From Escherichia coli (GTDB lineage: Bacteria > Pseudomonadota > Gammaproteobacteria > Enterobacterales > Enterobacteriaceae): DNA of 45,643 nt. The stretch lies in the NCBI RefSeq assembly GCF_003334355.1, contig NZ_QOWP01000030.1, one strand, 5' to 3'. Below are positions 1 to 23,210 of the stretch, piece by piece. The notes beneath the pieces are model-generated. The model made no database searches. It worked only from the letters and a program-made list of their open reading frames with translations, and was not told where the DNA came from. Positions within the stretch are counted from its first letter, which is position 1. Each line of letters opens with the position of its first letter. Position numbers and translations under genes: made by a program.

Positions 1-632
1 GCCTGCCGGGGCAGCAGTATGATGAGGAGTCCGGCCTGTATTACAACCGCCACCGCTATTATGACCCGCTGCAGGGGAGGTATATCACTCAGGATCCGAT
101 TGGGCTGAAGGGGGGATGGAATTTTTATCAGTATCCGCTGAATCCGGTTCAGTATATAGATTCAATGGGACTGGCATCAAAATATGGACACTTAAATAAT
201 GGCGGATATGGAGCGAGACCCAACAAACCGCCTACGCCCGATCCAAGTAAATTGCCGGACATAGCGAAACAATTAAGACTGCCATATCCTATTGACCAGG
301 CCAGTAGTGCGCCTAATGTTTTCAAAACATTCTTCAGAGCATTAAGCCCTTACGACTACACACTGTATTGCAGGAAGTGGGTAAAACCAAATCTGACTTG
401 TACGCCACAGGATGATTCCCAGTATCCAGGGATGGATACAAAGACAGCAAGTGATTACCTGCCACAGACAAATTGGCCAACAACTCAATTACCACCAGGA
501 TATACTTGTGCAGAACCCTATTTATTCCCAGACATTAATAAACCCGATGGGCCAGCAACAGCAGGGATAGATGATTTGGGTGAAATTTTAGCTAAGATGA
601 AACAGAGAACATCGAGAGGAATAAGAAAATGA
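1..632 (+). CDS. rhsO: Rhs-family protein, 3' portion (orphan Rhs core end plus C-terminal tip); 5' end lies outside the window
   Basis: Frame-3 reading from nt 3 gives [57 protein letters not shown], the conserved end of an Rhs core, continuing without a stop into the 155-codon ORF 165..632. Base composition turns AT-rich after about nt 165. Confidence 0.85.
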
Positions 633-1198
633 AAAGAGTTTTGTTCTTTTTGCTGATGATATTTGTTAGTTTTGGTGTTATAGCTGATTGCGAAATACAA
701 GCTAAAGATCATGATTGTTTTACTATTTTCGCTAAGGGTACTATTTTTTCCGCGTTTCCTGTCTTAAATAATAAAGCCATGTGGAGATGGTATCAGAATG
801 AGGACATCGGTGAGTATTATTGGCAAACAGAACTGGGTACATGTAAAAATAATAAATTCACACCAAGCGGGGCGAGACTCTTAATTCGCGTCGGGTCACT
901 ACGCCTTAATGAAAATCATGCCATCAAAGGAACGTTGCAGGAGTTGATAAATACAGCAGAAAAAACGGCGTTTCTCGGCGATCGGTTTAGAAGTTATATA
1001 AGAGCGGGTATCTATCAAAAAAAGAGCAGTGATCCAGTTCAGTTGTTGGCAGTCCTTGATAATTCAATCATGGTAAAATATTTTAAAGATGAGAAACCAA
1101 CTTATGCTCGAATGACAGCACATCTCCCGAACAAAAATGAGTCTTACGAATGTTTAATAAAGATACAGCATGAACTAATTCGTAGTGAAGAGAAATAA
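629..1198 (+). CDS. ybfC: Secreted protein of unknown function downstream of the Rhs tip; candidate cognate immunity protein
   Basis: 189-aa ORF whose ATG overlaps the rhsO stop (ATGA). N-terminus [19 protein letters not shown] looks like a cleavable signal peptide. AT-rich like the Rhs tip. Confidence 0.8.
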
Positions 1199-1279: not shown

Positions 1280-2571
1280 GCAGGGAAAGATCACGTAACG
1301 CTACTTTTTTGTACTAAATAATTCGCATTTTATGTTTAAAAATTGAGATACTCCTTATTACCTAAAGCTGTTTTTCATAGCTTATACATGATCAAATACT
1401 CCTTACATAAATAAGGTGAACAAATGGAACTTAAAAAATTGATGGAACATATTTCTATTATTCCCGATTACAGATAAGCCTGGAAAGTAGAGCATAAATT
1501 GTCAGGCATCCTACTATTGACTATTTTTGCCGTTATTTCTGGTGCAGAAAGTTGGGAAGATATAGAGGATTTCGGGGAAACACATCTCGATTTCTTGAAG
1601 CAATATGGTGATTTTGAAAATGGTATTCCTGTTCACGATACTATTGCCAGAGTTGTATCCTGTATCAGTCCTGCAAAATTTCACGAGTGCTTTATTAACT
1701 GGATGCGTGATTGCCATTCATCAAATGATAAAGACGTCATTGCAATTGATGGAAAAACGCTCCGGCACTCTTATGACAAGAGTCGCCGCAGGGGAGCGAT
1801 TCATGTCATTAGTGCGTTCTCAACAATGCACAGTCTGGTCATCGGACAGATCAAGACGGATGAGAAATCTAATGAGATTACAGCTATCCCAGAACTTCTT
1901 AACATGCTGGATATTAAAGGAAAAATCATCACAACTGATGCGATGGGTTGCCAGAAAGATATTGCAGAGAAGATACAAAAACAGGGAGGTGATTATTTAT
2001 TCGCGGTAAAAGGAAACCAGGGGCGGCTAAATAAAGCCTTTGAGGAAAAATTTCCGCTGAAAGAATTAAATAATCCAGAGCATGACAGTTACGCAATGAG
2101 TGAAAAGAGTCACGGCAGAGAAGAAACCCGTCTTCATATTGTTTGCGATGTCCCTGATAAACTTATTGATTTCACGTTTGAATGGAAAGGACTGAAGAAA
2201 TTATGCGTGGCAGTCTCCTTTCGGTCAATAATAGCAGAACAAAAGAAAGAGCCAGAAATGACGGTCAGATATTATATCAGTTCTGCTGATTTAACCGCAG
2301 AAAAGTTCGCCACAGCAATCCGAAACCACTGGCACGTGGAGAATAAGCTGCACTGGCGTATGGACGTGGTAATGAATGAAGACGACTGCAAAATAAGAAG
2401 AGGAAACGCCGCAGAATTATTTTCAGGGATACGGCACATCGCTATTAATATTTTAACGAATGATAAGGTATTCAAGGCAGGGTTAAGACGTAAGATGCGA
2501 AAAGCAGCCATGGATAGAAACTATCTCGCGTCAGTCCTTGCGGGGAGCGGGCTTTCGTAATCTTTCCCTGC
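1280..2571 (+). mobile_element. H-repeat (ISAs1-family) element, copy 1, bounded by inverted 10-mers cagggaaaga / tctttccctg
   Basis: About 1.29 kb unit. The terminal sequence ctttttgtactaaataattcgcattttatgtttaaaaattgagata and the whole ORF are repeated again starting near 2571. Boundaries are approximate. Confidence 0.7.
1424..2560 (+). pseudogene. ybfL: H-repeat-associated (ISAs1-family) transposase, inactivated by an in-frame TAA at 1475..1477
   Basis: ATG at 1424 encodes [17 protein letters not shown] then TAA; the same frame continues as the 353-codon ORF 1499..2560. The intact paralog at 2691 reads through with Q at this codon. ybfQ is the name I recall for the short N-terminal piece. 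Confidence 0.85.
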
Positions 2572-3525
2572 TTTTTGTACTAAATAATTCGCATTTTATG
2601 TTTAAAAATTGAGATATTCCTTATTACCTGAAGCTGTTTTTTATTGCTTATACATGATCAAATACTTCTTACATAATTAAGGAGAACAAAATGGAACTTA
2701 AAAAATTGATGGAACATATTTCTATTATCCCCGATTACAGACAACCCTGGAAAGTGGAACATAAATTATCGGATATTCTACTGTTGACTATTTGTGCCGT
2801 TATTTCTGGTGCAGAAGGTTGGGAAGATATAGAGGATTTTGGGGAAACACATCTCGATTTTTTGAAGCAATATGGTGATTTTGAAAATGGTATTCCTGTT
2901 CACGATACCATTGCCAGAGTTGTATCCTGTATCTGTCCTGCGAAATTTCATGAGAGCTTTATTAACTGGATGCTTGACTACCATTCTTCAGATGATAAAG
3001 ACGTCATCGCAATTGATGGAAAAATACACCGGCATTCTTATGACAAGAGTCGCCGTAAGGGAGCGATTCATGTCATTAGTGCGTTCTCAACAATGCACAG
3101 TCTGGTCATCGGACAGATCAAGACGGATAAGAAATCCAATGAGATCACAGCTATCCCTGAACTTCTTAACATGCTGGATATTAAAGGAAAAATCATCAAA
3201 ACCGATGCGATGGGTTGCCAGAAAGATATTGCAGAGAAGATACAAAAACAGGGAGGTGATTATTTATTCGCTGTAAAAGGAAACCAGGGGCGGCTAAATA
3301 AAGCCTTCGAGGAAAAATTTCCGCTGAAAGAATTAAATAATCCCAAGCATGACAGTTACGCAATTAGTGAAAAGAGTCACGGCAGAGAAGAAACCCGTCT
3401 TCATATTGTTTGCGATGTCCCTGATGAGCTTATTGATTTCACGTTTGAATAGAAAGGGCAGCTATGGTTAGAAACTACCTGACGTCAGTCCTTGCGGGGA
3501 GCAGGCTTTCGTAAATTTGTCCTGC
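2571..3525 (+). mobile_element. H-repeat (ISAs1-family) element, copy 2, with an internal deletion of about 300 bp
   Basis: Same left-end sequence as copy 1. The ORF stops at FTFE, then the C-terminal remnant MVRNYLTSVLAGSRLS follows (compare copy 1 ...[16 protein letters not shown]). Right end approximate. Confidence 0.7.
2691..3452 (+). CDS. ybfD: H-repeat-associated protein, C-terminally truncated ISAs1-family transposase
   Basis: 253-aa ORF about 90 percent identical to the copy-1 translation over its length. Probably non-functional as a transposase. Confidence 0.85.
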
Positions 3526-3599
3526 TACAACAGGATTAACTTCACAAATATCATTTCTCAACGTCTACACTTACTCCTGTAAACCGTTCAGGAGCAGTA

Positions 3600-4109
3600 A
3601 TGAATCAGCAACGATTTGATGACAGCACCCTAATCCGTATCTTCGCCCTTCATGAGTTACATCGACTGAAAGAACATGGCTTAACGCGCGGGGCGCTTCT
3701 CGATTATCACAGCCGCTATAAACTCGTCTTTCTGGCGCATTCTCAGCCGGAGTACCGCAAACTTGGCCCGTTCGTGGCTGATATTCACCAGTGGCAAAAT
3801 CTGGATGATTTTTACAACCAGTACTACCAACGCGTAATTGTTTTGCTTTCTCATCCCGCCAACCCGCGCGATCACACCAACGTTTTGATGCACGTTCAGG
3901 GTTATTTTCGCCCGCATATTGATTCCACAGAACGCCAGCAGTTGGCGGCGCTTATCGACAGTTATCGCCGTGGCGAGCAACCACTTCTTGCGCCGCTGAT
4001 GCGTATCAAACACTATATGGCGCTTTATCCTGACGCCTGGCTTTCAGGGCAGCGTTATTTCGAACTTTGGCCGCGTGTGATTAACTTGCGCCATTCAGGA
4101 GTTTTATGA
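3600..4109 (+). CDS. ybgA: DUF1722-family protein of unknown function, co-transcribed with photolyase
   Basis: 169-aa ORF with AGGAG 5 nt upstream of the ATG; its stop overlaps the phr start (ATGA). Confidence 0.9.
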   Translation: MNQQRFDDSTLIRIFALHELHRLKEHGLTRGALLDYHSRYKLVFLAHSQPEYRKLGPFVADIHQWQNLDDFYNQYYQRVIVLLSHPANPRDHTNVLMHVQGYFRPHIDSTERQQLAALIDSYRRGEQPLLAPLMRIKHYMALYPDAWLSGQRYFELWPRVINLRHSGVL

Positions 4110-12519: not shown

Positions 12520-13581
12520 TCAGTTATAGTTAATCTTAAAAAGCACCACTGTATCGAAGGGCCCAGCCTCGATGGGGGTACCTGCAATGGACGAAAGTTC
12601 AGCTGTATAGGTTTTTTCGTAGATCAACATGTCACTGGTGAAATCGGCGTATTCAGCATATTTATTGAAGGTATAAGGCGAGGCGTTTTCATCCAGTAAA
12701 CGTAGCTTCAGACCATTACCAATCAACAATGCTTTATCTTCTTCAACCAACGTTTCTTCGGTATAAAAGGAGGAACTAACTTTAAATCCGTCGGTGCATT
12801 GGTCATTTTGTGATTTTGTCGTCTTAATACTGAATGTTTTCGACATTGTGTGGCGACGAATATCCAGCAAATTAAATTTACCAAAATCTATCACCTGTGT
12901 TTCCGGTGAAATGGAAAAATTGACGCTGCAATCCAGCACGCGAATGTTTTCCAGACCAGTAATATGATATTTCAGGTTTTGGGCGGTAGGATCTTCGTTA
13001 ACGCTACCGGCACCGTCAAATTGCACGACGATATAGTCGCTAAGCGTACTTTGATAATCATGCGGCGGCATTTCTCGTATTTTGACGTATAACCGCATGC
13101 GAGCGAGAAAGGTACGCGACATGTGAATATTAGCGGGATCGCCCGAACAAATTTTGTTCTGCCATCCCATCGCGATGATCTGCTCAGGGGTATAAATGTC
13201 AATGTTCTTACTGTCGATACACTGGTTAGTGTCGATGCGGCTTTTTCCCTGGTTGGCGTCATAATCAACGCCATTGTAAGTTACGCCGAGTTGATAATAG
13301 CGATCCTGCACCCCCGGGTAGGGGTTTACCCAGGCGTAGACATGCTCACTTTCAAAGTTGCCGTTGGTATTGTTGTCACAATAGACGGGAATTTTAATAT
13401 CGTCAGATTCCCAAATCTTATCGCCGGGTTTGGCATTGCCTGGTACAGCAAAAGGTTGAATCACTTCTGATTTTTCTACCGAACCACCGGATGAACCAAA
13501 GTAGCAGTTCAGGGCAAGCGCAGACTTCAACGGCAGAAATAACAGACAGATGACGAGCAACACTCCCTTGCCAGCACTCAT
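12520..13581 (-). CDS. ybgO: Fimbrial adhesin-like protein, last gene of a chaperone-usher operon
   Basis: 353 aa from the ATG at 13581 ([23 protein letters not shown], signal peptide), with GGAGG 7 nt upstream. The ATG overlaps the ybgP stop (ATGA). Confidence 0.85.
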
Positions 13582-14309
13582 TTCTTCGCCTCCACGGCTT
13601 GTAAACGGCATTCTCCGCTGCAGTTGAGCGTCGTCATGCGTAACGCGCCGTAATCATCCATATAACCGAGATAAAACTGGCTGCCGCTATAACTTCCGGT
13701 GTTTGTGTTGACCGTACTAAAAGGCGCAATCATCACGGTTTTGAAGCCGGGGAAAACGCCTTTTTCATTTCTCCCCAGATAGGCAATGGTCAGATAATAC
13801 GCGGTAGGATTTTTCAGTGTCAGTTGGTTGCCCTGCTGGCTAACCTGTAACTGCAGTTCGACCTTTTCTCCTGCTTTCTTGCGTAATGCAGCCGGTCGCC
13901 AGAACACCTTGATACGACTCTGAATGGCGACTTGCAGAACGGCATGGTCGCTGTTTTTTTCCGGGGCGGGAGGAATTTCACGCATATTGTAGAAAAATAG
14001 CGTTTCGCGATCGCCCGGTAATTTCGCGGTCGAGGCTTGCTTTACTATCCGCACCTGCGTTGTTGCTTTCGGTTCCAGACGTTGTATCGGTGGCAGGGCA
14101 ACCAGAAGATCATCGCTTTTCTCCCCTTTTTCATTTTCGAGCCAGGAATAAGCGAGGTAGGGGAGTTTATCGCTACGATTATCCACGCGCAGACTGGTAG
14201 CTTTATCATTAGCGTTAAACACAATACGAGTGAGATCGGGTTGTAGTGCAGCGTGGCTGCACAGACTGGCAACCAACAACAAAAGGGGTAGTCCTTTCAT
14301 AAATGTCAT
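13578..14309 (-). CDS. ybgP: Periplasmic fimbrial chaperone (PapD-like)
   Basis: Signal peptide followed by a chaperone-like fold sequence. Start is ambiguous among ATGs at 14315, 14309 and 14300; 14309 has the best AGGA spacing. Confidence 0.82.
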
Positions 14310-14323
14310 TTTCATTTCCTTAA

Positions 14324-16783
14324 TTAATGACAAGGTAAAATCAGGCGATTTGCGGTGTCTTCCATATGTTCAGGAAGATGGAGCGAGCAATGCTGACTAT
14401 CACCCCAGACCACGGTAAACTTTTGATTTTCAGCGACTCCGCTTAACCAGGCATGTCCTTCCTCGCCAACCATCCCCACGCTAATGCCGCTGTCATCCTG
14501 GCGGATATCCGCTCCGAGGGGAGGAAACTGACCGCTGGCGTTGCGAATGATGACGTTAACGTCTTTACCGGAACGGGAAGCCAGTGATTTGTAACCTATC
14601 GCGCCTTCAATCCACGTTTCTTTGATAACGTTTTCTGCAACTGTTACGCCGTCGGGTAAGTCATTCATGTTCACCGCCACGGTGGAAGGCTGGTAACTGG
14701 AAATCAACGGCACCACCGCAATGCCAAAATGGTTGGTGTAGTCGAGATTGCCCTGAACCGGAATATCTGCCACGCCATCGGTGCTGACCATCAGGCGTGG
14801 TTCATTGGTGGAGCTGCGGCGATGAAACGCTGCACCATATTGGGTTGCGGTGAAAGAACCGCTCCAGCTGCTGCTGACGGAACTGTAATCATTGGCGGCA
14901 TAGGTACCAGAAATATCCCACTCACCCGCTGAACTCAGGTGCTGATAGTTACCGCTCACCTGGGCTCCATTGTCAGGACGGTCGGATTGCAGTCCGGCAG
15001 ACATGCCCCAGCTATTACGTTCATCCAGCGTATCGTTCCACGACATGCGGTGTGTGGTGCTGTGGCTACTGTTTTGCATGTCATAGCCAACCCGACCACC
15101 GTTACCGAAGGGGAGCGAAATCGACAGGTAAATCTGGTTGTCGCGATCTTTATCTTCGTAATGGGTTGTATTGAATGACGTCGAAATAGAGATATCTCTC
15201 CAGTCACCAATATCAACATTAAAACCTGCCGTGATGTTGGCGGTCGTGGAGGCGTCTGCATTCCACCAGGTTTGATGTAGCAGGTTGGCGTAAAGATTGA
15301 GGTTTAGTGGGGTAATCGGTTGGCCCACAGATAAGCTGATCGTCTGTTTTTCGTCCTGCGCATCGCTGTCGTTGTATTTGTGATCCAGATAGTTGGCGTA
15401 GCTGTGAAAATGACGATCGGAGAAACGATAAGCGGCGAGGGAAATCGTGCTGTTAGTGGCATCCACTTGTTTGCTGTAATTAAAACGGTAGCTTAAGCCC
15501 CGCTCGTCCTGCTGAGTATCAAAATGGCTACTGGCCCACGTGACATCAAACGACAGCGCACCAAGCCACAGCATATTTTGCCCAATACCCATTGCGGCAG
15601 AATGGTAGTCATCACCAGAAAGCAGCAGGCCGCCGTACAGCGAGGTGTTTGACAGCATCCCCCAGGAAACTTCATTGCTAAAAAAGGTTTCATTTTCAGT
15701 TTGATGTGACATGGAGGGCCGTGGCTGACCCGCGGCCAGTTTATAGCGAACCTGTCCCTGACGAGTCAGGAAGGGCGTCGATGCTGCCGAAACCTGGAAA
15801 TTGTTCACCCGACCATCTTCTTCCGTCACTTTGACATCAAGCGTGCCCTGAACAGACTGATTGAGGTCATCAATAATAAACAGTCCCGGAGGGACTTTTT
15901 TCTGGTAAATGACGCGACCTGATTGACTGATCGTCACCGTGGCATTGGTCTGTGCAATACCGCTAATTTGTGGGGCGTATCCGCGTAGCTCCCATGGCAA
16001 CATTCGATCGTCACTCGCCAGTGCCGCGCCAGTATAAGAAAAACCATCGAAAATATTGGAACTGAAATCGGTTTCGCCGAGGGTTAATTTAGAGCCTAAT
16101 TGCGGTAATGGACGAAAAAGATAGGTGCGCGATATTCCGCCTGACTGTTCATGGCTATCTTCGCTATCGGTGTTATTAAGCTGGTAATCACTGCGTAAGC
16201 GCCATGACCCGGCGTTAATTCCGGTGGTACCGTAGGCGTTCAGGTTAGTGCTGCTGCTGCCGTCCTGTGGGCGGTAGTTGCTGGCAAACAGGTTATAATC
16301 CATCAGGACCCCGGCAACACCTTCTTTCCATGTAGAGGGGGGAGCCCAGTTTTCTGAGTGCCACGCCAGCCAGGCTTGCGGAATACTAATATTCAGTTGC
16401 TGATTGGCTTGATCGAAATTGAAGAGCATTTCAGGTCGGGAACTGAAATCAATACACCGATCTATCTGTGGCAAGGACTGACGGATATCTGGTTTTAAAC
16501 CAAATTTATCGACCAGTGAATCATTGATGCATGGAATGGTTTTGTCACCCTTTTTTTGCCAGTTGATTTTTTGCCCATTACTGATTTGGTTGTTATTCAC
16601 CGCAACGCTAACAAAATATTCACCGGGAGCAATGACTCCTTTTTCCTTTAATAATGAAATATCAATGCGGTCGCGCATTGATTTATCGAGAACATTCAGA
16701 TTAAATTCGACCGCCAATGCGCAAGGCATCGCCATGACCAGGCAGGATAGAAAAGAGAGTCGATAAATATTCACGGTGTCCAT
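14324..16783 (-). CDS. ybgQ: Outer-membrane fimbrial usher protein
   Basis: Large usher-like ORF of about 820 aa. The ATG at 16783 (MDTVNIYRLSF...) is preferred; the 833-codon track start at 16825 is a TTG placed upstream of a GC-rich hairpin. Confidence 0.85.
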   Translation of the reverse strand: MDTVNIYRLSFLSCLVMAMPCALAVEFNLNVLDKSMRDRIDISLLKEKGVIAPGEYFVSVAVNNNQISNGQKINWQKKGDKTIPCINDSLVDKFGLKPDIRQSLPQIDRCIDFSSRPEMLFNFDQANQQLNISIPQAWLAWHSENWAPPSTWKEGVAGVLMDYNLFASNYRPQDGSSSTNLNAYGTTGINAGSWRLRSDYQLNNTDSEDSHEQSGGISRTYLFRPLPQLGSKLTLGETDFSSNIFDGFSYTGAALASDDRMLPWELRGYAPQISGIAQTNATVTISQSGRVIYQKKVPPGLFIIDDLNQSVQGTLDVKVTEEDGRVNNFQVSAASTPFLTRQGQVRYKLAAGQPRPSMSHQTENETFFSNEVSWGMLSNTSLYGGLLLSGDDYHSAAMGIGQNMLWLGALSFDVTWASSHFDTQQDERGLSYRFNYSKQVDATNSTISLAAYRFSDRHFHSYANYLDHKYNDSDAQDEKQTISLSVGQPITPLNLNLYANLLHQTWWNADASTTANITAGFNVDIGDWRDISISTSFNTTHYEDKDRDNQIYLSISLPFGNGGRVGYDMQNSSHSTTHRMSWNDTLDERNSWGMSAGLQSDRPDNGAQVSGNYQHLSSAGEWDISGTYAANDYSSVSSSWSGSFTATQYGAAFHRRSSTNEPRLMVSTDGVADIPVQGNLDYTNHFGIAVVPLISSYQPSTVAVNMNDLPDGVTVAENVIKETWIEGAIGYKSLASRSGKDVNVIIRNASGQFPPLGADIRQDDSGISVGMVGEEGHAWLSGVAENQKFTVVWGDSQHCSLHLPEHMEDTANRLILPCH

Positions 16784-16833
16784 ACCTGATAAATATTTGA
16801 AGAAAGGCGGCGATAGCGCCGCCAAAGTAATAC

Positions 16834-17400
16834 TTATTTATAATCCAGCACGTAGGTCGCATTCGCTGTAACTGCGCCTGGCGTTACAGGTGTAGCCTGA
16901 TCAATTTGTTCCATCCAGGCAAAGAAATTCAGCGTTTGTTCGCTGGAGGTCGGAGCCAGGTCGATATCTGGAGTAGCGGTGCCTAAAACGATATTGCTTT
17001 GATCTTTATTCATTAAACGTACGCCGACGCCGGTGGCTTCACCCGTGCTGGTGTTGTTGAGAATCGGATCTGCGCCGGTGGTTTTCGCTGAGCTATCAAA
17101 GGTGACTGCAACTTTAGAAATCTTGCCACCGGAACCGTTGCTGGAGTTTTCCAGATCACAGTTGACTAAGCGCAGGTCGACAGCAACGGCATCGCTGTGA
17201 TGTGACTGATTAATGTGGCTGGTGGTCACCTGACCGAGTTCAACCTCTTTATCAATATCATCCTGATGTATTTCACACGGTGCTTCAATAACTTCACCTT
17301 TAAAGTGAATTTCACCGGATCCTTCATCAGCTGCATAAACAGGTGCAGTGAATAGCAGAGATATGGCCAGAGCGGTCAATGTTTTTTGTCCTTTAAACAT
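16834..17400 (-). CDS. ybgD: Fimbrial major subunit-like protein
   Basis: 188 aa from the ATG at 17400 (MFKGQKTLTALAISLLFTAPVYA, signal peptide), with AAGGA 8 nt upstream. First gene of the ybgD-Q-P-O operon. Confidence 0.88.
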   Translation of the reverse strand: MFKGQKTLTALAISLLFTAPVYAADEGSGEIHFKGEVIEAPCEIHQDDIDKEVELGQVTTSHINQSHHSDAVAVDLRLVNCDLENSSNGSGGKISKVAVTFDSSAKTTGADPILNNTSTGEATGVGVRLMNKDQSNIVLGTATPDIDLAPTSSEQTLNFFAWMEQIDQATPVTPGAVTANATYVLDYK

Positions 17401-17727
17401 AACTGAGTCCTTTAAATAATGAGATAGAGTGTTGCGTGGCAAGAATATATAAAATGACAATTGAATGTATTTGGTTTTATTTAATAATATTAAAAAGCTT
17501 GTGATATAAAGAATGGAATAATTGAGTGCATAAATTTATTGTTTAATGAGATGAAGGATGGGGTGGGATGGATATGCATAATTTTCATTGGGTTAACAAT
17601 GTTACCGGCAGGGAAGTATAAAAATAAACTTATCATTCTGCTCAGTATGTGACTTGTCTCATTTTTTCACCTTATTAATGGGTATTTGCATCTGGTTTAA
17701 TTTTTACAATTTTTTATGTTCAGCCAT

Positions 17728-17759
17728 ATAAAAAAGAACCCGCTCTATTAAAGGCGGGT
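17728..17759 (-). terminator. Putative intrinsic terminator downstream of gltA
   Basis: On the minus strand: ACCCGC stem, 10-nt loop, GCGGGT, then UCUUUUUU. Lies 30 nt past the gltA stop. Confidence 0.5.
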
Positions 17760-17789
17760 CCGGAAAGTAAACGGCTTAGCAATCAATCA

Positions 17790-19073
17790 TTAACGCTTGA
17801 TATCGCTTTTAAAGTCGCGTTTTTCATATCCTGTATACAGCTGACGCGGACGGGCAATCTTCATACCGTCACTGTGCATCTCGCTCCAGTGGGCGATCCA
17901 GCCAACGGTACGTGCCATTGCGAAAATGACGGTGAACATGGAAGACGGAATACCCATCGCTTTCAGGATGATACCAGAGTAGAAATCGACGTTCGGGTAC
18001 AGTTTCTTCTCGATAAAGTACGGGTCGTTCAGCGCGATGTTTTCCAGCTCCATAGCCACTTCCAGCAGGTCATCCTTCGTGCCCAGCTCTTTCAGCACTT
18101 CATGGCAGGTTTCACGCATTACGGTGGCGCGCGGGTCGTAATTTTTGTACACGCGGTGACCGAAGCCCATCAGGCGGAAAGAATCATTTTTATCTTTCGC
18201 ACGACGAACAAATTCCGGAATGTGTTTAACGGAGCTGATTTCTTCCAGCATTTTCAGCGCTGCTTCGTTAGCACCACCGTGCGCAGGTCCCCACAGTGAA
18301 GCAATACCTGCTGCGATACAGGCAAACGGGTTCGCACCCGAAGAGCCAGCGGTACGCACGGTGGAGGTGGAGGCGTTCTGTTCATGGTCAGCGTGCAGGA
18401 TCAAAATACGGTCCATAGCACGTTCCAGAATCGGATTAACTTCATACGGTTCGCACGGCGTAGAGAACATCATATTCAGGAAGTTACCGGCGTAGGAGAG
18501 ATCGTTGCGCGGGTAAACAAATGGCTGACCAATGGAATACTTGTAACACATCGCTGCCATGGTCGGCATTTTCGACAGCAGGCGGAACGCGGCAATTTCA
18601 CGATGACGAGGATTGTTAACATCCAGCGAGTCGTGATAGAACGCCGCCAGCGCGCCGGTAATACCACACATGACTGCCATTGGATGTGAGTCGCGACGGA
18701 AAGCGTGGAACAGACGGGTAATCTGCTCGTGGATCATGGTATGACGGGTCACCGTAGTTTTAAATTCGTCATACTGTTCCTGAGTCGGTTTTTCACCATT
18801 CAGCAGGATGTAACAAACTTCCAGGTAGTTAGAATCGGTCGCCAGCTGATCGATCGGGAAACCGCGGTGCAGCAAAATACCTTCATCACCATCAATAAAA
18901 GTAATTTTAGATTCGCAGGATGCGGTTGAAGTGAAGCCAGGGTCAAAGGTGAACACACCTTTTGAACCGAGAGTACGGATATCAATAACATCTTGACCCA
19001 GCGTGCCTTTCAGCACATCCAGTTCAACAGCTGTGTCCCCGTTGAGGGTGAGTTTTGCTTTTGTATCAGCCAT
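17790..19073 (-). CDS. gltA: Citrate synthase (type II)
   Basis: 427-aa ORF; translation recognised as E. coli citrate synthase. Confidence 0.97.
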
Positions 19074-22293: not shown

Positions 22294-23010
22294 ATGAGAC
22301 TCGAGTTTTCAATTTATCGCTATAACCCGGATGTTGATGATGCTCCGCGTATGCAGGATTACACCCTGGAAGCGGAAGAAGGTCGCGACATGATGTTGCT
22401 GGATGCGCTTATCCAGCTGAAAGAGAAAGATCCCAGCCTGTCGTTCCGCCGCTCCTGCCGTGAAGGTGTGTGCGGTTCCGACGGTCTGAACATGAACGGC
22501 AAGAATGGTCTGGCCTGTATTACCCCGATTTCGGCACTCAACCAGCCGGGCAAGAAGATTGTGATTCGCCCGCTGCCAGGTTTACCGGTGATCCGCGATT
22601 TGGTGGTAGACATGGGACAATTCTATGCGCAATATGAGAAAATTAAGCCTTACCTGTTGAATAATGGACAAAATCCGCCAGCTCGCGAGCATTTACAGAT
22701 GCCAGAGCAGCGCGAAAAACTCGACGGGCTGTATGAATGTATTCTCTGCGCATGTTGTTCAACCTCTTGTCCGTCTTTCTGGTGGAATCCCGATAAGTTT
22801 ATCGGCCCGGCAGGCTTGTTAGCGGCATATCGTTTCCTGATCGATAGCCGTGATACCGAGACTGACAGCCGCCTCGACGGTTTGAGCGATGCATTCAGTG
22901 TATTCCGCTGTCACAGCATCATGAACTGCGTCAGTGTATGTCCGAAGGGGCTGAACCCGACGCGCGCCATCGGCCATATCAAGTCGATGTTGTTGCAACG
23001 TAATGCGTAA
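22294..23010 (+). CDS. sdhB: Succinate dehydrogenase iron-sulfur subunit
   Basis: 238-aa ORF with cysteine clusters CRxGxCGSDG and CILCACCSTSCP. Confidence 0.97.
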   Translation: MRLEFSIYRYNPDVDDAPRMQDYTLEAEEGRDMMLLDALIQLKEKDPSLSFRRSCREGVCGSDGLNMNGKNGLACITPISALNQPGKKIVIRPLPGLPVIRDLVVDMGQFYAQYEKIKPYLLNNGQNPPAREHLQMPEQREKLDGLYECILCACCSTSCPSFWWNPDKFIGPAGLLAAYRFLIDSRDTETDSRLDGLSDAFSVFRCHSIMNCVSVCPKGLNPTRAIGHIKSMLLQRNA

Positions 23011-23210
23011 TTAAATGTTGATGCCGGGGAAATCCCCCGGCTATTCAGGAAATCTTTAAAAACTGCCCCTGACACTAAGACAGTTTTTAAAGGTTCCTTC
23101 GCGAGCCACTACGTAGACAAGAGCTCGCAAGTGAACCCCGGCACGCACATCACTGTGCGTGGTAGTATCCACGGCGAAGTAAGCATAAAAAAGATGCTTA
23201 AGGGATCACG

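Follow-up and report, generated by a model that had tools for sequence, protein, structure and literature searches.

Descriptions of H-repeats in Rhs elements go back to the early 1990s; the one by Hill and co-workers, reportedly of 1993, included tandem defective copies at RhsC. The interval of E. coli K-12 MG1655 that is equivalent to the one studied here holds ybfQ, ybfL (annotated as a pseudogene) and ybfD (annotated as an "H repeat-associated putative transposase"), which are H-rptC1, C2 and C3 of those authors; two other, intact K-12 copies, H-rptB (yhhI) at RhsB and H-rptE (ydcC) at RhsE, are called B and E below. The full-text literature on H-rpt, ISEc1 and ybfL/ybfD gave incidental mentions only. 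Within the ISAs1 family, to which the H-repeats belong, IS1548 is a 1,316-bp member (PMC7096684), and transposition of an E. coli H-repeat has not been observed (PMC3032704).

Here we analysed a 45,643-nucleotide stretch of E. coli DNA (contig NZ_QOWP01000030.1; hereafter the window), the first 5.6 kb of which are the distal end of the RhsC island. Near its start lies the RhsC-linked H-repeat array, consisting of two inactivated copies of the 1.29-kb ISEc1 that are very probably mosaic by recombination rather than simple duplicates of one another. The copies correspond to ybfL and ybfD, which are annotated in K-12 as pseudogenes, and to this extent the locus is already known biology. Its features, in window coordinates, are as follows.

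Start of the window, upstream of ybfC: Rhs C-terminal tip
629-1198: ybfC
1281..2570, + strand: H-repeat unit 1, full-length, ISEc1-type, 1,290 bp, orthologue of K-12 H-rptC2 / ybfL
1281..1295, + strand: left terminal inverted repeat of unit 1
1424..2560, + strand: transposase frame of unit 1, 378 codons with one interruption, translated from the ATG at 1424
1475..1477, + strand: TAA nonsense codon, codon 18 of unit 1
1499..2560, + strand: residual ORF after the stop, 353 codons, TTG start; the span annotated as pseudogene ybfL in K-12
2556..2570, - strand: right terminal inverted repeat of unit 1
2571..3524, + strand: H-repeat unit 2, orthologue of K-12 H-rptC3 / ybfD
2691..3452, + strand: ybfD ORF, 253 codons, closed by the TAG at 3450-3452
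3457..3460, + strand: junction of the 313-bp deletion in unit 2, where unit-1 positions 911-1223 (window 2191-2503) are missing
3515..3524, - strand: degenerate right terminal repeat of unit 2, ATTTGTCCTG against TCTTTCCCTG
3525..3561, + strand: 37 bp of island-specific sequence from unit 2 to where the RhsC island ends on the right, placed by empty-site comparison
3600-4109: ybgA, followed by phr and dtpD

Two ISEc1 copies and their lesions

The gene order ybfC, unit 1, unit 2, ybgA, phr, dtpD is that of K-12 and of thousands of other genomes. The whole stretch likewise has matches in thousands of complete E. coli genomes (99.3% for the top match), and in matching genomes RefSeq labels unit 1 "ISAs1 family transposase, internal stop" and unit 2 "ybfD: ISAs1 family transposase, missing C-terminus". 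Along with the flanking genes (ybfC on one side, ybgA-phr-dtpD on the other), the window has in common with K-12 the TAA, the TAG and the 313-bp deletion, which identifies the array as the one linked to RhsC. To its right the limit of the island could be placed. In 1,310 genomes ybfA and ybgA are adjacent and the RhsC island is absent, and when such empty sites from strains MB53 and PapRG-04-4 were aligned with the window, homology resumed at 3562. Hence the array stops 37 bp short of the right-hand limit of the island and is not that limit.

That the copies are H-repeats of the ISAs1 family, as the original prediction had proposed from the letters alone, was borne out by profile searches. With codon 18 restored, unit 1 scored 415.2 bits against NCBIfam NF033564 (ISAs1; cutoff 70) and matched Pfam DDE_Tnp_1_assoc (PF13808) over residues 8-94 (E = 1e-31) and DDE_Tnp_1 (PF01609) over residues 102-343 (E = 1e-30), while the ORF of unit 2 scored 279.9 bits against NF033564 and covered only profile positions 1-220 of 314. 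Unit 1 also has the dimensions and ends of an ISAs1 element (1,290 bp, one 378-codon frame, terminal inverted repeats). Its nucleotide identity over 1,290 bp, 95.8% to H-rptB and 95.3% to H-rptE, and its matching termini place it among the H-repeats, or ISEc1, and the RefSeq name for an intact allele at this position is 'ISAs1-like element ISEc1 family transposase'. A putative catalytic triad was assigned to D109, D172 and E306 by resemblance to motifs, not from a structure. We found no direct repeat that could represent a flanking target-site duplication around unit 1, the whole array, K-12 H-rptB or H-rptE. Target-site duplication varies within the ISAs1 family, and its absence is thus weak evidence either way.

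The two units share one orientation, lie head to tail and abut at 2570/2571, in agreement with a predicted shared boundary near 2571. Unit 1 is 99.1% identical to the K-12 ybfL copy (L002:8683-9973) and unit 2 is 99.7% identical to the K-12 ybfD copy (L002:9974-10927). In unit 1 the TAA at codon 18 is the one obvious lesion, and the ends of the element are intact. Translation agrees with the predicted contrast between this stop and the CAA of the paralog: the codon is CAA in unit 2 (2742-2744) and equally in K-12 ybfQ, H-rptB and H-rptE. Inverted 10-mers had further been suggested to mark the element ends. For unit 1 they do, as CAGGGAAAGA occurs exactly at 1281-1290 (+) and 2561-2570 (-) and nowhere else in the 45.6-kb window; the stated length was slightly short, the perfect repeat being 11 bp (1281-1291 / 2560-2570) and matching at 14/15 positions on extension.

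Unit 2 has suffered more damage than had been noticed. The roughly 300 bp reported as lacking near its 3' end amount, by alignment, to a 313-bp deletion with a 2-bp GC microhomology at its junction (3458/3459); the length is not a multiple of three and hence shifts the frame, and the loss takes out approximately codons 257-360 and with them the putative catalytic E306, which lies in an HWHVENK motif. Just 5' of the deletion, codon 254 (3450-3452) has changed from TGG, as found in unit 1, to TAG. In addition, the unit begins only at element position 25. With the first 24 bp went the left inverted repeat, and the right repeat is degenerate, so that unit 2 does not have the terminal inverted repeats of the family. 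The copies thus carry different inactivating lesions, as predicted, and judging from these lesions neither unit would be able to make a transposase.

Comparison across E. coli strains, which had been put forward for timing the lesions, showed that both sets are old alleles, close to fixed where the locus exists. A 61-mer around the TAA was found exactly in ~2,680 complete genomes, and the stop is for this reason not a sequencing artefact; the CAA version of the same 61-mer was exact in 5 records only. A 71-mer across the deletion junction, including the TAG, was detected in 2,814 genomes and was exact in ~2,685 of them. Each lesion set is consequently exact in ~2,680 of the ~2,814 complete genomes that bear the locus; all such counts were obtained with short diagnostic probes and from 12 sampled genomes, are approximate, and include identity bands that may take in partial matches.

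Near-fixation also bears on whether one of the remnants has been domesticated, that is, whether host or element has retained YbfD (253 aa, comprising the N-terminal DNA-binding region and part of the catalytic core) or the 353-aa YbfL remnant, for example as an inhibitor of transposition. Across ~2,700 genomes the ybfD ORF and the deletion junction hardly vary, YbfD is annotated as a protein in K-12, and truncated transposases serve as inhibitors in other insertion-sequence families. Low diversity is, however, expected anyway at a young species-level locus, and the polymorphisms of ybfD in 7 orthologues (2 synonymous, 3 non-synonymous) gave no sign of constraint, at very low power. Moreover, about half of E. 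coli lack the locus, and strains A65EC and 3PT, in which it is truncated or deleted, show no obvious consequence. We therefore regard retention for a function as scarcely credible. Separately, a tail-only match in strain 3PT was considered as a clue to the origin of the array and rejected; it reflects an IS1-mediated deletion and is uninformative on origin.

Divergence between the units and origin of the pair

The original prediction explained the two copies by a tandem duplication followed by separate decay. Pairwise alignment upheld their homology, with 92.8% identity over 953 aligned positions: unit-1 positions 26-910 matched window 2572-3457 at 93.9% over 886 bp, and unit-1 positions 1224-1291 matched window 3458-3525 at 85% over 68 bp. 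In-place duplication of one H-repeat, followed by independent inactivation and drift, would account for directly abutting, head-to-tail units with differing lesions, and would lead one to expect units that are each other's closest relatives throughout and have diverged neutrally. Neither expectation agrees with what we found.

The first point concerns the kind of changes that separate the units. Their ~7% divergence comprises 27.5 synonymous and 19.5 non-synonymous changes (p = 7e-9 against neutrality), which corresponds to a dN/dS of 0.16-0.20; measured against H-rptB, dN/dS is 0.10 for unit 1 and 0.31 for unit 2. Dead copies face no selection on the transposase, and decay in place would be expected to bring the ratio close to 1, yet the differences are mostly synonymous, which indicates that the divergence arose in lineages that were still functional.

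The second point concerns relationships. A four-way comparison of unit 1, unit 2, B and E was star-like: 27 changes occur in unit 1 alone and 37 in unit 2 alone, and only 1 site groups the two units against B and E. Each unit is nearer to H-rptB, which sits at another locus, than to its immediate neighbour, and the closer of the two to B changes along the element:

Block 1306-1660: identity to B, unit 1 93.2%, unit 2 98.9%
Block 1661-2191: identity to B, unit 1 98.5%, unit 2 94.7%

The private changes are distributed accordingly: of those in unit 1, 20 fall in the first block and 5 in the second, and of those in unit 2, 1 and 24, respectively (Fisher p = 4e-8), although with no references other than B and E the derived blocks are not distinguishable and the recombinants could be B and E themselves. 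Unit 1 thus holds its private changes in the first 380 bp and unit 2 beyond. The relationship switches within 1643-1666, at about element position 380, which is the exact end of the K-12 ybfQ fragment. Because the block identities flip at ~380, the B-like tract continues unbroken across the junction of unit 1 and unit 2, and because the relationship flips along the element, a single duplication without recombination cannot explain the pair. Taken together, the dN/dS of 0.16, the mosaic pattern and the single shared-derived site contradict the duplication proposed at the outset, and we consider in-place duplication very unlikely.

We instead favour an origin in which H-repeat lineages diverged under purifying selection for transposase function and the two units are mosaics of those lineages, later joined head to tail, and not recent in-place duplicates. 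From then on the array has been only a passive substrate for homologous recombination, in which unequal crossover has repeatedly given one-, two- and three-unit forms and short gene-conversion tracts have shifted markers between adjacent units.

A more specific route to such a pair is integration, by which an old, diverged resident element, represented today by the first 380 bp of unit 1 and the part of unit 2 past 380, would have gained a B-like unit through homologous recombination. We hold this to be possible, if doubtful, and the same applies to the proposed donor, a circular or dimer form with a right-end / position-25 junction that would have made the tandem pair in one step. Consistent with integration, the B-like sequence is contiguous from ~381 of unit 1 through the right end to ~380 of unit 2, which is one repeat period; the switch interval 1643-1666 contains position 380, where the ybfQ fragment ends; and the hybrid forms described below repeatedly show the converse event, in which one period is lost. 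Nevertheless, the B-like tract is not clean, since the 3' block of unit 1 (2192-2557) is moderately diverged from B again (dS 0.17), and a search of 5,426 genomes yielded no intact copy of the resident element that the model proposes. It is for these two reasons that we rated the model low. H-repeat circles are, in addition, undocumented, and a K-12 mobilome study had no clear ISAs1 circles. When the same 5,426 genomes were searched with a chimeric probe for an undeleted unit-2-type element, the best match reached 98.3% and the others were ordinary B-like copies at ~97%. Given that no full-length relative of the diverged 3' part of unit 2 was found among them, its source lineage appears to be unsampled.

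Whichever route joined the units, the origin as mosaics that we favour carries a caution: with mosaic units in a recombining array, dating of lesions from the divergence between paralogous copies is unsafe here.

Unequal crossover and gene conversion in the array

In K-12 and most strains a third, diverged left-end unit of 380 bp, ybfQ or C1, lies upstream of unit 1. The junction between this fragment and the next left inverted repeat was detected in 2,529 genomes, and the junction between the right end of unit 1 and unit 2 in only 1,376. Typing of the array in 12 genomes with the locus, drawn as a rank-spread sample, gave the following forms.

Single hybrid unit, 978 bp: 3 of 12 genomes
ybfQ fragment plus hybrid, 1,358 bp: 5 of 12 genomes
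Three units (the K-12 form), 2,625 bp: 4 of 12 genomes
Two units (the window form), 2,245 bp: 0 of 12 genomes

All four array lengths (978, 1,358, 2,245 and 2,625 bp) occurred among the 16 genomes inspected. The two-unit form is present in the genomes that best match the window and, bounded by subtraction, in at least ~28 and at most ~285 genomes, since no short probe told it cleanly apart from the remaining forms. The window carries a minority form.

The array is polymorphic, its one-, two- and three-unit forms having been made by unequal crossover between units. Hybrid units have a 5' end of unit-1 type and a 3' end of unit-2 type, and they switch from one to the other in at least two places, 1932-1936 and 2098-2161. 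As these switch points differ, unequal crossover must have happened more than once. For annotators it is useful to know that the label "ybfD" has been given to several non-equivalent hybrid units.

Shorter exchanges between units were also evident. Unit-2 markers at 1862-2005 are carried by all six other full-length unit-1 orthologues examined (K-12 and five strains) and are missing from the copy in the window, which points to a conversion patch later than the TAA. The TAA itself has been lost from a few natural strains through gene conversion by an adjacent unit. The middle unit of strain Res13-Lact-PEB14-36 is that of K-12 except at 1463-1660, a stretch identical at 198/198 positions to the strain's own ybfQ fragment. 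Here the TAA is gone, and the unit has an intact 378-aa ORF, both element ends and an annotation as ISEc1 transposase. The donor of the repair was the ybfQ fragment in both the Res13 and the CFIAFB20180511 lineages, and a 71-mer diagnostic of the Res13 repair was exact in 5 records only. Two further strains, VCSW8 and 357900, have hybrid units that are of unit-1 type near codon 18 but read CAA, which may be either the ancestral state or a reversion. In the two-unit form of the window, unit 2 could act as conversion donor for unit 1.

Since the lesions of neighbouring units do not overlap, a conversion tract can erase the TAA and restore the full-length ORF. It is conceivable, although in our judgement improbable, that the dead array is in this way a latent source of intact ISEc1, with a short conversion tract rebuilding a complete and possibly transposition-competent element. 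Should a rebuilt copy prove competent, it would provide the first evidence of E. coli H-repeat movement and an example of pseudogene arrays as an insertion-sequence reservoir. The locus has little importance beyond bookkeeping, and what our analysis adds is of modest evolutionary interest, namely the recombination mosaic, the polymorphism in unit number across E. coli and the natural repair of complementary lesions by gene conversion.

Comparison with known systems

With other members of the ISAs1 family, such as ISAs1 of Aeromonas salmonicida, IS1358 of Vibrio cholerae and IS1548 of Streptococcus agalactiae, the H-repeats have in common a single DDE transposase, a length of ~1.3 kb and short terminal inverted repeats. 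Several members of the family transpose, in contrast to the E. coli H-repeats, for which this has not been observed (PMC3032704), and around none of the E. coli copies examined is there a target-site duplication.

H-rptB and H-rptE resemble unit 1 more closely, being ~1,290 bp long, with terminal CAGGGAAAGAT, one 378-codon ORF and 95-96% nucleotide identity. Unlike unit 1, both have intact ORFs. Their inner left end differs from that of unit 1 (1294-1305) at 8-9 of 12 positions, and their right repeat has one mismatch (TCTTGCCCTG).

In its arrangement, the locus recalls yncI-ydcC at K-12 RhsE, where two ISAs1-family units, again head to tail, close an Rhs island and the upstream unit is a pseudogene. 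There, however, the downstream unit is intact and the units are only ~67% identical, which clearly marks them as independent insertions of different family members and shows that such pairs can arise from independent elements.

The closest counterpart is ybfL/ybfD of K-12 itself. It occupies the same locus between ybfC and ybgA, with the same TAA in unit 1, and in unit 2 the TAG, the 313-bp deletion and the lost left end are shared as well. The window differs from it in lacking the 380-bp ybfQ (C1) and, within unit 1, the 1862-2005 patch; the substitutions between the two number 11 for unit 1 against ybfL and 3 for unit 2 against ybfD.

Repair of the codon-18 stop in strain Res13-Lact-PEB14-36

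In E. coli Res13-Lact-PEB14-36, the orthologue of unit 1 (the upstream H-repeat of the window, whose transposase gene is interrupted by TAA at codon 18) lacks this stop codon (positions 1600-2736 of comparison stretch L011). The TAA was erased by a gene-conversion tract, which is identical at 198 of 198 positions to the neighbouring ybfQ fragment, an H-repeat remnant. Following this repair, the ISEc1 transposase gene is intact and encodes 378 aa, and both element ends are present. A 71-mer diagnostic of the repaired form found exact matches in 5 records only.

Left end and upstream surroundings of the RhsC-linked units

Comparison of the RhsC-linked units (unit 1 of the window, K-12 C1 and K-12 C2) with the intact K-12 H-repeats H-rptB and H-rptE showed that the outer 13 bp of the left end are identical, whereas in the inner part (window 1294-1305) 8-9 of the 12 positions differ. 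Upstream of the H-repeats, two features were identified:

Window start to 632: end of an Rhs core with an orphan C-terminal tip (ybfO-type pseudogene); the window begins inside it
629-1198: ybfC ORF, overlapping the Rhs tip

Together (window 1-1198), the Rhs tip and ybfC resemble an orphan pair of toxin-tip and immunity type.

Divergence from K-12 elsewhere in the window

The fimbrial operon ybgO-ybgP-ybgQ-ybgD (window 13000-18000) diverges from K-12 far more than its surroundings: mismatches rise to 212 per kb in the bin covering 17-18 kb, compared to 0-20 per kb elsewhere. This mismatch density, far in excess of that of the flanking sequence, suggests that the operon underwent allelic replacement through recombination. 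In the sdhB-sucA interval, the window lacks ~130 bp that K-12 has, and the sucB-sucC interval contains naRNA4/CssrE-type repeats in a copy number unlike that of K-12:

27359-27430: naRNA4/CssrE-type repeat, Rfam match
27450-27521: naRNA4/CssrE-type repeat, Rfam match

These two repeat-copy differences from K-12 are minor and lie at 23010-23043 (sdhB-sucA) and 27352-27521 (sucB-sucC).

Secondary damage, a probable rearrangement and recurrence at Rhs island ends

The RhsC H-repeat locus has been damaged further in single strains. In A65EC (L022 936-1454), a deletion starts upstream of rhsC and ends within unit 2, the downstream H-repeat, leaving the order ybfA, partial ybfD, ybgA, and in 3PT (L025 2749-3446) the H-repeats were removed by an IS1-associated deletion. 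Among the matches to the window, two strains carry IS1 inserted within the H-repeat array.

E. coli ARL09/232 carries a pair of ISAs1 units of the RhsE type immediately beside yafV-ivy-fadE, the min-5 locus, where K-12 contains only a 280-bp H-repeat fragment:

L008 2749-5115: ydcD, frameshifted ISAs1 unit, ISAs1 unit with an internal stop

This arrangement looks like a chromosomal rearrangement via H-repeat homology.

ISAs1-family elements recurrently lie side by side where Rhs islands end, because RhsE also terminates in such a pair: in K-12 (L004 5587-7963), two units lie head-to-tail, the upstream member being the pseudogene yncI, ~67% identical to H-repeats, and intact ydcC starting 32 bp after it.
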